Of a stretch of DNA of 64,000 bases, positions 58,731 through 63,350 are shown piece by piece. Both the position numbers and the translations under genes were made by a program. Every line of letters starts with the position of its first letter. The stretch's first letter is position 1. Source of the DNA: Escherichia phage dhabil; the sequence record MN850621.1; one strand, 5' to 3'. The notes under the pieces were generated by a model. The model was not told where the DNA came from. It worked only from the letters and a program-made list of their open reading frames with translations, and did not search any database.

Positions 58731-58735
58731 CAAAA

Positions 58736-58760
58736 AAGGAGAGCTTACGCTCTCCTTTAG
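58736..58760. terminator. bidirectional terminator GGAGAGC-TTAC-GCTCTCC flanked by A6 / T-rich tracts
   Basis: CAAAAAAGGAGAGCTTACGCTCTCCTTTAGGGGTTTATTT between convergent genes 54 and 58765-59055. Confidence 0.6.
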
Positions 58761-58764
58761 GGGT

Positions 58765-59055
58765 TTATTTACGGAACGAGATAAAACCTGCAGCGGTCAT
58801 TAATGGCTGCTTTTTAACAAAGACCGTGATAGAAATAGGAGCTTCAGATTCAAACTGACCGGTTACTACACCATTAAAAATATTTTCGGTTTGCTCAGGT
58901 TGTGAAAAATTTTCAACCGGGCGTAAGTCGAACTGTTTGTCTTCGCCGAAAACTCGACGTAATTCATTACCTACTGCACTGTCGAACTCTTCAGAAGCAG
59001 GGATAACGTTTTCAACTACCAGTTCTTGACCATTAAAACGGAATGCAGATTTCAT
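58765..59055 (-). CDS. hypothetical acidic protein (96 aa)
   Basis: ORF track; RBS GAGGAG before ATG; own early-type promoter upstream. Confidence 0.5.
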   Translation of the reverse strand: MKSAFRFNGQELVVENVIPASEEFDSAVGNELRRVFGEDKQFDLRPVENFSQPEQTENIFNGVVTGQFESEAPISITVFVKKQPLMTAAGFISFRK

Positions 59056-59083: not shown

Positions 59084-59113
59084 ATAGTACCACATCCTTG
59101 TGGTGTTGTAAAC
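59084..59113 (-). promoter_or_regulatory. early promoter (GTTTAC-N18-TACTAT, minus sense)
   Basis: Minus sense GTTTAC AACACCACAAGGATGTGG TACTAT; spacer contains hairpin CCACA/TGTGG. Confidence 0.45.
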
Positions 59114-61236
59114 TACATTTTGAATTTATTTGGTAAAGAAGAGATGTCCAAAGATGCAGCAAGGATTTCCATAGCCTCGTTACTTTCTGAAACAGATTCT
59201 GAAACTAGGAATTCTTTAAACCCATTCATCAATTTAACTTCGCCGGTTTCCATCAGATGGTCACCATCGTAAACGGACTCACTGAGTTCTGAAGGAGATG
59301 TCACTGTAGCTTCCATAAGGTATTTGTGAGATACCCTATCATTCATAGCAAAAGCTGCTACTTTATCAACCTTCAACAATAATCCGCGCGGAAGGATAAT
59401 TTCCGCTTCTTCGGCATATTCTGTAAGGTCACCAGGAGCGATAACTTTAACTGCTTCAGCACCTCGAATAACCATACCAATTTCAGCAATCCTGTCTGCA
59501 GGGCCTTCAGGTGCAATTGGATTACCAAACTCGTCTTCTTCCCATTCTACCTCTTCATCATCAACTTCACCTACGTCAGATGAACTACCACTGGCCAATT
59601 TAAACAACTCATCGGCGGAGGATAAAGAACCTTCATCACCAACAAAAACTGCTTGGTTGTCGAGGGCCATATAATTTTTACCAAATTCACCAAAGATATT
59701 AGGCTTTAATGAAGCGGATACAAAGTTCTTAAAGTAAAAGGTTTTGTTATCAATATTATGGCGCAGAATTTTGTATGGTAAATCCTGACCACGATACAAA
59801 ATAGTACCCTTAGGAAGTTTAATACCCTTGGTAAATGCTGAGTCTAAATCCTTAATCAATTTAATAGCTGTTGTATTGTTTTCGGATTCAGGTTTACCTA
59901 AAAGGAATAAGTTCATAGGAGCATATTCAGCCGCACAATATTCAATAATGGCATTACTTTCGTCTTTGGTCAAGCCCTTAGGTTTAATGAGCTCGCCTGA
60001 ATAAGCATATGCATCGCTAATAGAATCGTTAATCAGTTTATAAACGGCTTCCATAGCGAAAGCAATTCGGGATGCTTTCTCTGAAGGAGACCCCTGAAAA
60101 CGGGCACTCAGGTTATTAACAATTCTCTTAATAATATCCAGACTATTGGTAGTATTGATTTGAGAAAGGCCGCTTAAAAGTCTATCGACTTCCGTATTAA
60201 AAAATGCCATATTATTAGAGTAAATTTCAAACCCTTGTTTATCTCTATTAGCATAATTTAGTTTAAATTTACTATCAGTCATTAAAGCGTGTGTGAGAGC
60301 AATGGTGTATCTAAAGTTGGCAAGGTCCTCACTCTTAGATTTAAACTGAGAGGCCTGACGCATTTTAGTAATAGCACCTTTTTTAAAGTTCTGGCTAATT
60401 TGTTCAATACCTTCGTTCTCAGGGCCTTCGGCCGAGTGAACAGGGACGGAAGCTTCAAACTCGTTATAAACCTGCAATTCTTTAGGTGATAAAGTTTCAG
60501 GTTCGGCAGTAGAATACTGCGCTGCTGCAGCCATACGACGGGAAATTTTAGTACGAGAGATAACAGCCTTATCGGTACGTTTCTCTTCAACCTGTGCAAT
60601 AGATGCTGCTACGGCTTCGACCTTACTTACGGCCTGGCCGGTTTTCTTAGAAACATAAACTTCACCGACTTTAGACTCAACCTTGGTATAAAGGTCCGCA
60701 TCAATTTCAGGCATACCCTTGATATCTTCGATATTAGTGCCACGACGTGCTAAAAGAACGTATGTATGTTTACCACTAAACTGGAACATGCTATCGACAA
60801 CTTTAAACTTACCACCGGTACGTGCCATCGCCAAACGAGCTAATACACGCTGAACAGTAGGGCCCTTACCTTTCATTTTCTTGGTAGGGAAACGGAACAA
60901 AACCGCATCCATTTTAAGTTTATTTACCTGTTCGTATATCGTATCAAAAATAGTATTCAATGTACCAAGTGGGTCGGAACCAAGGCCACCTTTGAGTTCA
61001 GCTGGAGCACCCTTGCTCGACAAACTCATTAAAATAACATGAATGTATTTGTCACCAGGCTTAACCATTTTAATAGCGTCTCCTTGAGACGCATAAGATA
61101 CCATACGAGCAACCAGGTTATCGTTACCTGGTGCTTGAATAGAGAAAATCTGTGGGATACCGGAGCCTGGTTTAAGATTTGTTACTGGATAGTTTTTAGC
61201 GGAATCACTATCAAAAACTTCGTTTAAATTTTCCAT
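59113..61236 (-). CDS. alt: Alt-like ADP-ribosyltransferase, paralog 1 (707 aa)
   Basis: Size and position beside gene 54 and ligase as T4 alt; C-terminal candidate ART motifs (Arg in YRGQ, FVSASL, EEAEIILPRG). Confidence 0.75.
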   Translation of the reverse strand: MENLNEVFDSDSAKNYPVTNLKPGSGIPQIFSIQAPGNDNLVARMVSYASQGDAIKMVKPGDKYIHVILMSLSSKGAPAELKGGLGSDPLGTLNTIFDTIYEQVNKLKMDAVLFRFPTKKMKGKGPTVQRVLARLAMARTGGKFKVVDSMFQFSGKHTYVLLARRGTNIEDIKGMPEIDADLYTKVESKVGEVYVSKKTGQAVSKVEAVAASIAQVEEKRTDKAVISRTKISRRMAAAAQYSTAEPETLSPKELQVYNEFEASVPVHSAEGPENEGIEQISQNFKKGAITKMRQASQFKSKSEDLANFRYTIALTHALMTDSKFKLNYANRDKQGFEIYSNNMAFFNTEVDRLLSGLSQINTTNSLDIIKRIVNNLSARFQGSPSEKASRIAFAMEAVYKLINDSISDAYAYSGELIKPKGLTKDESNAIIEYCAAEYAPMNLFLLGKPESENNTTAIKLIKDLDSAFTKGIKLPKGTILYRGQDLPYKILRHNIDNKTFYFKNFVSASLKPNIFGEFGKNYMALDNQAVFVGDEGSLSSADELFKLASGSSSDVGEVDDEEVEWEEDEFGNPIAPEGPADRIAEIGMVIRGAEAVKVIAPGDLTEYAEEAEIILPRGLLLKVDKVAAFAMNDRVSHKYLMEATVTSPSELSESVYDGDHLMETGEVKLMNGFKEFLVSESVSESNEAMEILAASLDISSLPNKFKM

Positions 61237-61239
61237 TAT

Positions 61240-63300
61240 TTACCCTTGGATGAATTTTTCTGGGATGTCATAGAGGTCTATGCATGAAGCCAAAAGAGGC
61301 AGTACGTCAAACCGTGTAGATTTAACAAATGAATCAAAAGATACAGGGCTTTCGGAAGTATCGAAGTCATCTTGGTATACAACCAATTCACCAGTTTCCA
61401 TTAGTACATCACCATCATATACCACTGACTCTTGAAGCTCATCTGTTGTCATAACTTCAGCTTGAATGAGTTTTGTATTGTTGGATATTATACCGTCATT
61501 ATTGGATGCATCTGTTATTTTATTAATTTTTACCATTAGTCCACGCGGGAGAATGATTTCAGCTTCAGTAGCAATGCCAAGTTGCCCAGGGAATACTACG
61601 TTAACCTTAGAAGCCCCATCAATAGCCCAACCAACTTTAACCAACTTGTCGCCGGAACCTTGGACCTTAGTATAACCTTCATCATTTTTATCTACGGTAA
61701 GTTCGGCTCTAACTTCAGGCTCTAAAAGACCCACACCCGCATGAGTAACACCAAAACGGCCGAAAATAATAGGAGTCAGTGAAGTGGATACAAAGTTTCT
61801 AAAATAGAATACTTTATTTTTGACTAAAGCATTATATATGGCCCACGTCATACTCTGTGCACGATAAACAGTAATGCCTTCAGGTAATCTATCACCGTTT
61901 TCAAAAGCAGAATCCAAATTATTAACTGCAGATTCGATATCTTTTTCGCTCATAACCTCATAGTTCTGAGGATTATATCGTCCTAAAAGAAGGTTATTGA
62001 TATCGCCATATCCGGAGCCACAATATTCACGAATACCACGTTTTTGAGAAGGGGTGTATTTATCTGCACTATGACCTAAAGTAATATCAACCATAATACC
62101 ACCACCTACACCAGCAAAACTATACACACGTTTTTTAATGAACTTGGTCTTGGCTGCTTTCCACTTGGACTCGGTTAATTCATTCCAGACGTCATCAGGC
62201 TGACCTTTACGAGTTTTGTTATGCTTAGCCAGCCATTCACCTTTGTATTCTTCGAAAACGGTATTAATAACAGAGGCATATTTTTCTAGAGCTTTAACAG
62301 ATGTCAAAGGTTCGTTTTTGATGGCCGTAAGGATTCTCTCTTTAATTTTCTCTTGGATTTCACCTATACCGTGAAGAGGAAACATTTTATAATCGTAATG
62401 CAACTCTTCAGCAGTGCCTTCAGCTACTATATTAGCAACCTTATTTTTAGCCGCAGGAGAATTGTTATTAGTAACCATTTCTTGGGCATCAGGGATTAAT
62501 GGAGCTGTTGCCGGTTTATTAAAATCAGCGGCAGTGGCTTCATATTTCTTAAACAGTTCACTTTCATTACGATAGGATTCTAAAGACTGGCTTGCTGCAA
62601 TAGCGCGACGAGAAATCTTAGTCTTGGTTATAACCATTTTATCAGTGCGACGTTCTTCAACTTTAGCAATACTGCCGGTAATAGCAGTTTCTTTAGTAAC
62701 CTGCAGGCCTTCTTTTTTAGAAATATAAACTTCACCAACATCAGAATCTACCTTAGTATACAATTCGGCATTAATTCCAGGCATACCTTTGATATCTTCG
62801 ATATCAGCTTGTTTACGAACTACTAGGATATAAGTATGTTTACCGGTAAATTGGTACATAGCCGGAACTACTTTAAAACGTCCACCGGTTTTCTGTGCTA
62901 CCAAACGTTGGATAATCCGTTGGACAATAGGTCCTTGCCCTTTCATTTTCTTGGTTGGAAAACGGAACATCACAGCATCCATACGAAGCTTTTTAACTTG
63001 TTCGAATACTACGTCGAAAATGGTATTAATAGCATCAATAGGAGTAGGGCCTAAGCCACCTTTAAGTTCGGCCGGAGAACCTTTAGCTGAAAGGCTCATA
63101 AGGATAACATGGGCGTATTTATCACCTAATTTAACCTGTTTAATAGCATCGCCTTCAGAGGCATAAGATACCATACGGGCCACTAATTGGGATTCGGCGT
63201 CGCCAATCTTCCAAATCTGCGGTACTTTAAGTTTTGGGTTTAAGTTTACAGTAGGCAGGGTGCCTTCGGACTCAAACACCTCATTCAATTGTTCGGTCAT
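61240..63300 (-). CDS. alt: Alt-like ADP-ribosyltransferase, paralog 2 (686 aa)
   Basis: N-terminal 230 aa closely parallel paralog 1 (LVARMVSYAS.GDAIK.VK.GDKY.HVILMSLS.KG.PAELKGGLG); motifs YRAQ, FVSTSL, TEAEIILPRG. Confidence 0.75.
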   Translation of the reverse strand: MTEQLNEVFESEGTLPTVNLNPKLKVPQIWKIGDAESQLVARMVSYASEGDAIKQVKLGDKYAHVILMSLSAKGSPAELKGGLGPTPIDAINTIFDVVFEQVKKLRMDAVMFRFPTKKMKGQGPIVQRIIQRLVAQKTGGRFKVVPAMYQFTGKHTYILVVRKQADIEDIKGMPGINAELYTKVDSDVGEVYISKKEGLQVTKETAITGSIAKVEERRTDKMVITKTKISRRAIAASQSLESYRNESELFKKYEATAADFNKPATAPLIPDAQEMVTNNNSPAAKNKVANIVAEGTAEELHYDYKMFPLHGIGEIQEKIKERILTAIKNEPLTSVKALEKYASVINTVFEEYKGEWLAKHNKTRKGQPDDVWNELTESKWKAAKTKFIKKRVYSFAGVGGGIMVDITLGHSADKYTPSQKRGIREYCGSGYGDINNLLLGRYNPQNYEVMSEKDIESAVNNLDSAFENGDRLPEGITVYRAQSMTWAIYNALVKNKVFYFRNFVSTSLTPIIFGRFGVTHAGVGLLEPEVRAELTVDKNDEGYTKVQGSGDKLVKVGWAIDGASKVNVVFPGQLGIATEAEIILPRGLMVKINKITDASNNDGIISNNTKLIQAEVMTTDELQESVVYDGDVLMETGELVVYQDDFDTSESPVSFDSFVKSTRFDVLPLLASCIDLYDIPEKFIQG

Positions 63301-63319
63301 AATAATTCCTCTTTAATAA

Positions 63320-63350
63320 CCGTATTTATGCCATAAAAGGCCCGAAGGCC
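63320..63350 (-). promoter_or_regulatory. terminator hairpin (AAGGCC-TTCG-GGCCTT + TTTAT) followed by near-consensus late promoter CATAAATA
   Basis: Minus sense AAGGCCTTCGGGCCTTTTATGGCATAAATAC directly upstream of alt paralog 2. Confidence 0.4.

Follow-up and report, generated by a model that had tools for sequence, protein, structure and literature searches.

Escherichia phage dhabil (sequence record MN850621.1) carries, on the minus strand of the 64,000-nucleotide stretch analysed here (the window), two adjacent open reading frames (ORFs) related to Alt, the ADP-ribosyltransferase (ART) of phage T4. We call the 686-amino-acid (aa) ORF A and the 707-aa ORF B. A preliminary description of the window had pointed to them as tandem Alt paralogs, and their exact coordinates and lengths were recovered:

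61240..63300, minus strand: altA (A type), 686 aa, ortholog of T6/T2 alt and JS10 alta
59113..61236, minus strand: altB (B type), 707 aa, ortholog of T6 "alt.-2" (685 aa), of JS10 altb and of the downstream Merlin copy

The 4.9 kb region is 99.8% identical in nucleotides (nt) to Escherichia phage dhaeg (MN850609, Dhakavirus), and the window genes are labelled dhaeg A and dhaeg B in the comparisons below. The dhaeg record names both genes "ADP ribosyltransferase", and JS10 (EU863409) and IME08 use the names alta and altb. The tandem arrangement of alt in T-even phages is therefore ordinary, neither new nor unusual, and has already been annotated and published. Rather than a recent duplicate, A and B represent ancient types, each with orthologs in other genera.

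Family, domain layout and catalytic residues

Both proteins match the Alt family of PHROG (phrog_802) over their full length (A, E 5.1e-257, covering residues 1-685; B, E 1.8e-250, covering residues 1-707) and exceed the gathering threshold (23.4 bits) of Pfam family PF03496 (ADPrib_exo_Tox), with 111.7 bits for A (E 3.7e-32) and 65.3 bits for B (E 5.9e-18). These matches support the proposal that both ORFs encode Alt-type ARTs. A second Pfam family, PF26846, is listed in the precomputed annotations of every Alt homolog and was not reported by the local Pfam search.

The similarity between A and B is far above chance. The close resemblance of their N-termini and the divergence of the remainder, both noted in the preliminary description, were reproduced by BLASTP: the N-terminal 239 residues were 64% identical (E 3e-102), some 299 residues on the C-terminal side were 34% identical (E 2e-41), and about 180 central residues stayed unaligned. 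The motifs quoted there are also present, namely YRAQ at 479 of A and YRGQ at 481 of B, FVSTSL at 503 and FVSASL at 505, and EAEIILPRG in both.

A and B share a four-part layout, which consists of a short acidic N-terminal propeptide, a basic alpha/beta N-terminal module (N-module; about 190 aa) with linker helices, an all-helical centre and an ART domain of the C3/VIP2 type. An acidic C-terminal propeptide follows the ART domain, after the second of two [L/I]-x-E motifs. AlphaFold2 (AF2) models, with a mean predicted local distance difference test score (pLDDT) of 83.2 for A and 76.5 for B, have the same order in both proteins: a disordered N-propeptide, an alpha/beta N-module reaching to about residue 195, linker helices, a helical centre, an ART core and a C-tail of low confidence. 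The domains lie as follows:

62581..63279, minus strand: N-module of A (residues 8-240), a basic alpha/beta domain with linker helices, common to all Alt paralogs
60511..61218, minus strand: N-module of B (residues 7-242), homologous to that of A
62071..62580, minus strand: central all-helical region of A, a variable cassette (residues 241-410; AF2 helices 248-408, pLDDT about 90)
59977..60510, minus strand: central all-helical region of B, specific to the B type (residues 243-420; AF2 helices 251-417)
61429..62070, minus strand: ART catalytic domain of A (residues 411-624), with R480, S505-T-S507 and E579-A-E581
59278..59976, minus strand: ART catalytic domain of B (residues 421-653), with R482, S507-A-S509 and E610-A-E612
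59491..59685, minus strand: B-specific acidic insert (residues 518-582) between S-x-S and ExE, net charge -15, 28% Asp+Glu

Both proteins have the features of the ART fold of the C3/VIP2-type R-S-E clade. An alignment with T4 Alt, ModA and ModB, suggested in the preliminary description, placed R-S-ExE in register in A and B: R480, S505, E579 and E581 of A and R482, S507, E610 and E612 of B align with the ExE of T4 Alt and with E163/E165 of ModA. A copy without the catalytic residues, named there as evidence that would refute the proposal, was not found, R-S-ExE being intact in both. Conservation was counted over 47 homologs for A and 53 for B (about 100 in all), in which these residues are invariant (47/47 and 53/53) except for the Arg at 46/47. 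The ARTT (ADP-ribosylating turn-turn) loop of both A and B has ExE and not QxE. In ARTs of the R-S-E clade, ExE rather than QxE in this loop marks arginine specificity.

The substitutions ModA E165A and "Alt E577A" abolish ADP-ribosylation (PMC11404850). E165 of ModA is the second Glu of ExE. In the T4 reference Alt, residue 577 is Val and the ExE is E574-M-E576, so that the label "E577A" does not fit; it is presumably an off-by-one name for the second Glu of ExE.

The acidic insert of B is absent from A-type proteins in the multiple alignment and is shorter in the B proteins of T6 and JoYop (net charge -7 to -8). Its AF2 pLDDT is below 50 at residues 518-565 and 573-578. The toxins C3, VIP2, iota-Ia, CDTa, Vis and Certhrax, which also belong to PF03496, are only 12-25% identical to A and B, and they are delivered by binary-toxin B components or secretion systems and not by a phage-head module.

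Processing motifs

T4 Alt is cut by gene product 21 (gp21) at ITE-6 and LTE-619, as determined by mass spectrometry; 63 C-terminal residues are lost and the mature protein has 68.2 kDa (PMC5694885). A search for gp21 sites, also proposed in the preliminary description, found counterparts of both T4 motifs in A and B, as predicted sites that delimit the following segments:

63280..63300, minus strand: predicted N-propeptide of A, MTEQLNE, ending in L-N-E, which aligns with I4-T5-E6 of T4 Alt
61219..61236, minus strand: predicted N-propeptide of B, MENLNE, ending in L-N-E, in the column of T4 ITE-6
61243..61428, minus strand: predicted C-propeptide of A (residues 625-686), after L622-Q-E624, which aligns with T4 L617-T-E619; net charge -10
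59116..59277, minus strand: predicted C-propeptide of B (residues 654-707), after L651-S-E653, in the column of T4 LTE-619

AF2 confidence is low at residues 653-684 of B. At least 91% of the homologs retain the motif [L/I]-x-E at both sites. At the N-terminal site it is complete in 43 of the 47 homologs counted for A (Glu in 46), and of the 53 counted for B 52 have L/I and all have Glu; at the C-terminal site L/I and Glu are found in 45 and 46 of the 47 and in 50 and 53 of the 53, respectively. By analogy with T4 Alt, cleavage of A and B would occur at these motifs. Predicted mature A (residues 8-624) has 68.3 kDa and an isoelectric point (pI) of 9.0, and predicted mature B (residues 7-653) has 71.1 kDa and a pI of 6.0.

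The C-propeptides contain the sequence YDGDxLMETGE, of which the D-G-D core and the second Gly are kept in 85-98% of the homologs. Since this sequence is conserved even though it lies inside the segment that T4 removes at LTE-619, the discarded C-tail probably serves a conserved function, for instance in targeting to the core or in holding the enzyme inactive. The L-M-E within it was considered as the C-terminal gp21 site and dropped, because the T4 cut at LTE-619 (Ali et al. 2017) aligns 9-10 residues upstream.

The alt slot in other phages

The gene order in the window is ligase(30)-alt.1-altA-altB-alt.-3, followed by gp54 on the opposite strand. T4, T6, JS98, JoYop and Merlin have their alt genes at the same position between gene 30/alt.1 and alt.-3/gene 54, and synteny is likewise conserved in JS10 and 44RR. 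About a dozen alt loci were sampled, and the slot differs among them in the number of alt copies:

T6 (Tequatrovirus): alt and a 685-aa "alt.-2", annotated "also similar to alt"
JoYop (Tequatrovirus): a T4-type alt and an intact B
JS98 (Dhakavirus): two full genes
Merlin (Moonvirus): two full genes
44RR (Biquartavirus): two full genes and one partial gene
MX01 (Dhakavirus), QL01, AnYang and C6: three copies

T2 has the same tandem layout as T6. The order of A and then B and the 3-nt gap between them are common to T6/T2 alt and alt.-2, JS10/IME08 alta and altb and the window. When residues 241-707 of B were used as a tblastn query, matches of at least 80% coverage were obtained in 464 of 1221 Alt-bearing phage records. 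In Klebsiella phage vB_Kpn_AM_K5 (Jiaodavirus), tblastn found four Alt-like places. Several ORFs without annotation (310-816 aa) occupy the slot upstream of its baseplate genes and may form an Alt array that is larger or rearranged.

It had been asked in the preliminary description whether T4 itself has a second alt-like gene at this position, in which case the same two-gene layout with known functions might already be on record. This was only half the case. Downstream of T4 alt lie alt.-1 (61 aa) and alt.-2 (67 aa), which are a stub of such a gene, and T4 has no intact second copy. The two short products correspond to residues 1-56 and 62-116 of T6 alt.-2 (96-98% protein identity) and to PHROGs 23015 and 15247, both of which match A and B. 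The remnant and its intact counterpart were compared as DNA in extracts of the two loci:

T4 extract L003, 5053-5480, against T6 extract L004, 6098-8225: alt.-1/alt.-2 remnant against the second alt of T6

The first 351 nt of the stub are 96.6% identical to T6 alt.-2, about 1.69 kb are then skipped, and the final 87 nt are retained. The B-type gene of T4 has thus undergone both a frameshift and an internal deletion. A duplication of alt had already been recognised in alt.-1/alt.-2 by the T4 RefSeq note and by Nolan et al. 2006 (PMC1524935). We used the stub as query and surveyed an evenly spaced sample, of the Tequatrovirus type, drawn from the 502 matching records. The T4-type deletion was found in about 20% of the sampled rows; elsewhere the match ends at nt 350 and an intact gene continues. 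Because only this fraction shares its deletion, T4 represents a minority state.

Two types and mosaic genes

The identities within and between genomes differ from domain to domain:

N-module: dhaeg A and B 65%; T6 alt and alt.-2 68%; dhaeg A and T6 alt 46%; dhaeg B and T6 alt.-2 46%
Central region: dhaeg A and B 11%; T6 alt and alt.-2 13%; dhaeg A and T6 alt 65%; dhaeg B and T6 alt.-2 44%
ART domain: dhaeg A and B 36%; T6 alt and alt.-2 34%; dhaeg A and T6 alt 82%; dhaeg B and T6 alt.-2 57%

Overall, N-modules are 65-68% identical within one genome but 42-46% across genera, and in this respect T6 and T2, with their genus-specific N-modules, differ from the window. The tree of ART domains separates an A clade and a B clade (97-99% bootstrap each), and A of the window falls into the A clade with the A proteins of T6, T4, JS98 and MX01 (97%). 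The alt genes are therefore mosaic, with N-modules that group by genus and central and ART parts that group by type.

Mosaicism is also seen among A genes. The ART domains of Dhakavirus A proteins are 82-94% identical to that of T6 A. JS10 A is at the upper end of this range, whereas its N-module shares only 46% with that of T6 A, and the synonymous divergence (dS) between the two genes is 0.71 in the ART part versus 1.75 in the N-module. JS98 A and T4 alt match their respective relatives at 94-100% in the N-module and C-tail but at only 24-35% in the central region. The central region of dhaeg A, in turn, is 34% identical to those of JS98 A and T4 alt, and the central region of B is 97-100% identical within Dhakavirus. 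The A gene within a genus thus exists as cassette variants. JS10 alta (694 aa) differs from dhaeg A in the variable loop between STS and ExE; the two are 83% identical in the ART domain, 98% in the N-module and 100% in the C-tail. JS10 altb and dhaeg B share 99% identity.

Strong purifying selection acts on both genes. The ratio of nonsynonymous to synonymous divergence (dN/dS) is 0.10-0.11 for A against JS10 and MX01 and still lower, 0.03-0.05, for B against its Dhakavirus relatives. Between the N-modules of A and B, dS is saturated (about 1.6), so that any homogenisation of these modules must be old; recent gene conversion, which was considered as the source of their similarity, is ruled out by this value.

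A shift in nucleotide identity relative to the MX01 copies marks an approximate crossover zone:

60936..61086, minus strand: approximate crossover zone in the 5' part of altB

In the 5' end of altB (window 60936-61236), the first 150 nt or so of B in dhaeg, JS10 and JS98 agree at 93-98% with the middle (C) copy of MX01 but at only 70-82% with MX01 B, and from about nt 300 on dhaeg B is 85-97% identical to MX01 B. This pattern suggests either unequal crossing-over between N-module repeats, by which three copies would have become two, or a replaced 5' end in MX01 B.

Expression signals and neighbouring genes

The signals around the two genes and the gene that follows them are listed below:

63335..63350, minus strand: terminator-like hairpin GGCCTTCGGGCC followed by TTTT, upstream of altA, read from the sequence
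63323..63330, minus strand: late-promoter-like box CATAAATA, one mismatch to the T4 late consensus, putative function
63307-63314, minus strand: Shine-Dalgarno sequence AAAGAGGA before the ATG of altA, read from the sequence
61234..61245, minus strand: junction of altA and altB, GGG TAA ATA ATG, with a 3-nt gap and an AAGGG Shine-Dalgarno-like stretch in the end of altA
58765..59055, minus strand: alt.-3 homolog, 96 aa, last gene of the predicted altA-altB-alt.-3 unit, annotated alt.-3 in JS10, IME08 and dhaeg
58735..58758, minus strand: intrinsic terminator closing the predicted altA-altB-alt.-3 unit, a 10-bp stem with 5 GC pairs and then a T-run

T4, T6, JS98 and dhaeg have exactly the same hairpin and Merlin a near-identical one, and a conserved terminator upstream of alt has been described (Nolan 2006, PMC1524935). 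A simple terminator scan did not list it because its T-run is short. The late-promoter-like box stands at the aligned position of the consensus TATAAATA in T4, T6 and Merlin, and JS98 has the same variant as dhaeg. When the locus was scanned for exact TATAAATA, no site was found, only the one-mismatch box at the conserved position. With this arrangement altA and altB would be co-transcribed and possibly translationally coupled, and the putative late promoter would presumably serve alt.-3 as well. In T4, mutants with a C-terminal extension of Alt.-3 escape the CmdTAC defence system (PMC11618068).

Interpretation of the gene pair

T4 Alt is packaged in the head in about 40 copies and injected with the DNA. 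It ADP-ribosylates the alpha subunit of E. coli RNA polymerase and other host proteins, an activity known only for T4 Alt (PMC9503650, PMC5512222). A and B resemble T4 Alt (gpAlt, 682 aa) in family, domain order, R-S-ExE, both gp21 motifs and genomic slot, and altA also shares with T4 alt the upstream hairpin, the position of a late-promoter-like box and the Shine-Dalgarno sequence. T4 Alt differs from dhaeg A in having another central cassette and an ART domain of 62% identity, and T4 differs from the window in having lost the B copy.

We consider it probable that two ancient and intact paralogs from the T4 Alt family occupy the conserved slot that is flanked by ligase/alt.1 and alt.-3/gp54, and that, by homology, their products are packaged and injected ARTs, likely with different substrates. 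After transcription from the putative late promoter, A and B would be built into the prohead core like T4 Alt, trimmed by the gp21 protease at both ends (A to residues 8-624 and B to residues 7-653) and injected together with the DNA. The mature enzymes would then use NAD+ to mono-ADP-ribosylate arginines of host proteins. They would most likely modify different substrates, because their central regions cannot be aligned, their ART loops differ and B has an acidic insert of charge -15; different targets, as had been proposed for the pair, are thus plausible. A would be the counterpart of the RNA-polymerase-modifying Alt of T2 and T6. Central and ART cassettes appear to be exchanged between genera, and the copy number of the array may shift through unequal crossing-over in the repeated N-module.

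Several points weigh against this interpretation. The expression, packaging, cleavage and activity of A and B are predictions from homology, and the difference in targets is a prediction from sequence divergence; the substrates could overlap. The late-promoter box is mismatched at its first position (CATAAATA). The N-module tree groups the paralogs by genus, with moderate bootstrap (Dhakavirus 59%, Tequatrovirus 78%). In addition, the B type tolerates loss, since about 20% of the sampled Tequatrovirus-type records, T4 included, have the deletion, and it is therefore dispensable at least in the laboratory.

The same tolerance would be expected if A and B were redundant and had their targets in common, for example the RNA polymerase alpha subunit, the second copy adding only to injected dose or robustness. 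T4 and the sampled relatives that share its deletion thrive without B, and A and B have in common the catalytic motifs and the ExE signature of the arginine type. We nevertheless regard redundancy as unlikely, in view of the low identity of the central and ART parts and the type-specific acidic insert in B. Moreover, in at least three genera the two types remain distinct and under purifying selection, whereas redundant copies would be expected to homogenise or to decay. It is very improbable that B, or A, is itself a decaying duplicate on its way to the T4 state: T4 does illustrate how B can be lost, by a frameshift and a deletion of 1.7 kb, but in the window both reading frames and all catalytic and processing motifs are intact, and the dN/dS of B, below that of A, effectively refutes decay. 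A recent duplication within the Dhakavirus lineage can hardly account for the pair either. Although the N-modules of A and B resemble each other more than they resemble their cross-genus orthologs, their synonymous sites are saturated, type-specific orthologs of the central and ART parts are found, in well-supported clades, in Tequatrovirus and Moonvirus, and the two-type layout also occurs in T6, JoYop and Merlin, so that B-type genes exist outside Dhakavirus.

One of the two, most likely B, might instead be a non-virion protein that acts in the infected cell in the manner of ModA and ModB, which are not packaged (PMC5512222). Owing to the acidic insert, mature B has a pI of about 6, whereas mature A is basic, and virion proteomics of a B-type protein was not found in the searchable literature. 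B has, however, kept the full N-module and both gp21 motifs, with Glu in all 53 homologs counted for B, and altB would be co-transcribed with altA, 3 nt upstream, behind a late-type promoter. ModA and ModB share with A and B an alignable R-S-ExE core, but these proteins of about 200 aa are without N-module, helical region, propeptides and gp21 sites; A and B, of 686 and 707 aa, with which only the ART core of ModA and ModB aligns, do not belong to their subgroup. A non-virion role for either protein is accordingly quite improbable. Taken together, two packaged and injected enzymes of the Alt family, each with its own targets, remain the best explanation of the locus.

That alt is duplicated has been on record since 2006, and as it stands the finding adds little to this. 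A literature search for studies of the second Alt copy or for virion proteomics of the B type returned only the comparative note of that year, and a known function for the second copy was not found in the searchable literature; the lack of studies on the B type is presumably due to its absence from T4. T4 is atypical in this respect, since a conserved second Alt type is encoded, and may be injected, by most of its genus and by several sister genera. Work on ADP-ribosylation in T-even phages that is confined to T4, whether on host takeover or on conflicts with phage defence, would miss the B-type effector. The mosaic genes and a possible GNAT-like N-module are modest leads on how phages diversify the enzymes that they inject.

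The N-terminal module

Acetyl-CoA is bound in proteins of the GNAT (Gcn5-related N-acetyltransferase) superfamily by motif A, Q/R-x-x-G-x-G/A, which forms the pyrophosphate loop between strand beta4 and helix alpha3. In the N-modules the loop K-M-K-G-Q-G (A) or K-M-K-G-K-G (B) likewise sits between a strand and a helix. The loop Gly is invariant in 100 of 100 homologs, and at the last position 60 of the 100 have G, 35 have E and 4 have A. Glu at this position in about 35% of the homologs is atypical of a working loop and argues against a conserved CoA site. Searches of five N-modules against Pfam, including its GNAT models, gave no match at E <= 10; full-length searches against NCBIfam and PDB returned nothing, and a PDB profile search returned ART entries only. 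Iyer et al. 2017 described GNAT-ART neighbours in polyvalent proteins, set Alt outside the true polyvalent proteins and described no GNAT domain in Alt, and none was described in the other papers that we read. We take a GNAT-like fold of the N-module as a lead and not as a finding. It is doubtful that the N-module of A, B and T4 Alt is a working GNAT-type domain, for acyl-CoA binding or acyl transfer, and not just a handle for packaging into the head, with the B type as a second such effector with host targets of its own. If this were true, Alt proteins would be injected effectors with two enzymes each, comparable to the GNAT-ART pairs of phage polyvalent proteins.

When 1.84 billion proteins were searched with a profile of both N-modules, only 72 cluster representatives matched, in each case at the N-terminus, and almost all of these proteins are of Alt size and end in an ART domain or a degenerate ART. 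With so few representatives, nearly all ART-ended, the idea that the N-module is a general delivery handle for many types of effector was mostly rejected. In one metagenomic protein of 541 aa (P0173), residues 8-161 match the Alt N-module and the C-terminal half shows neither a Pfam match nor visible ART motifs; this protein may represent a different effector on the Alt N-module.

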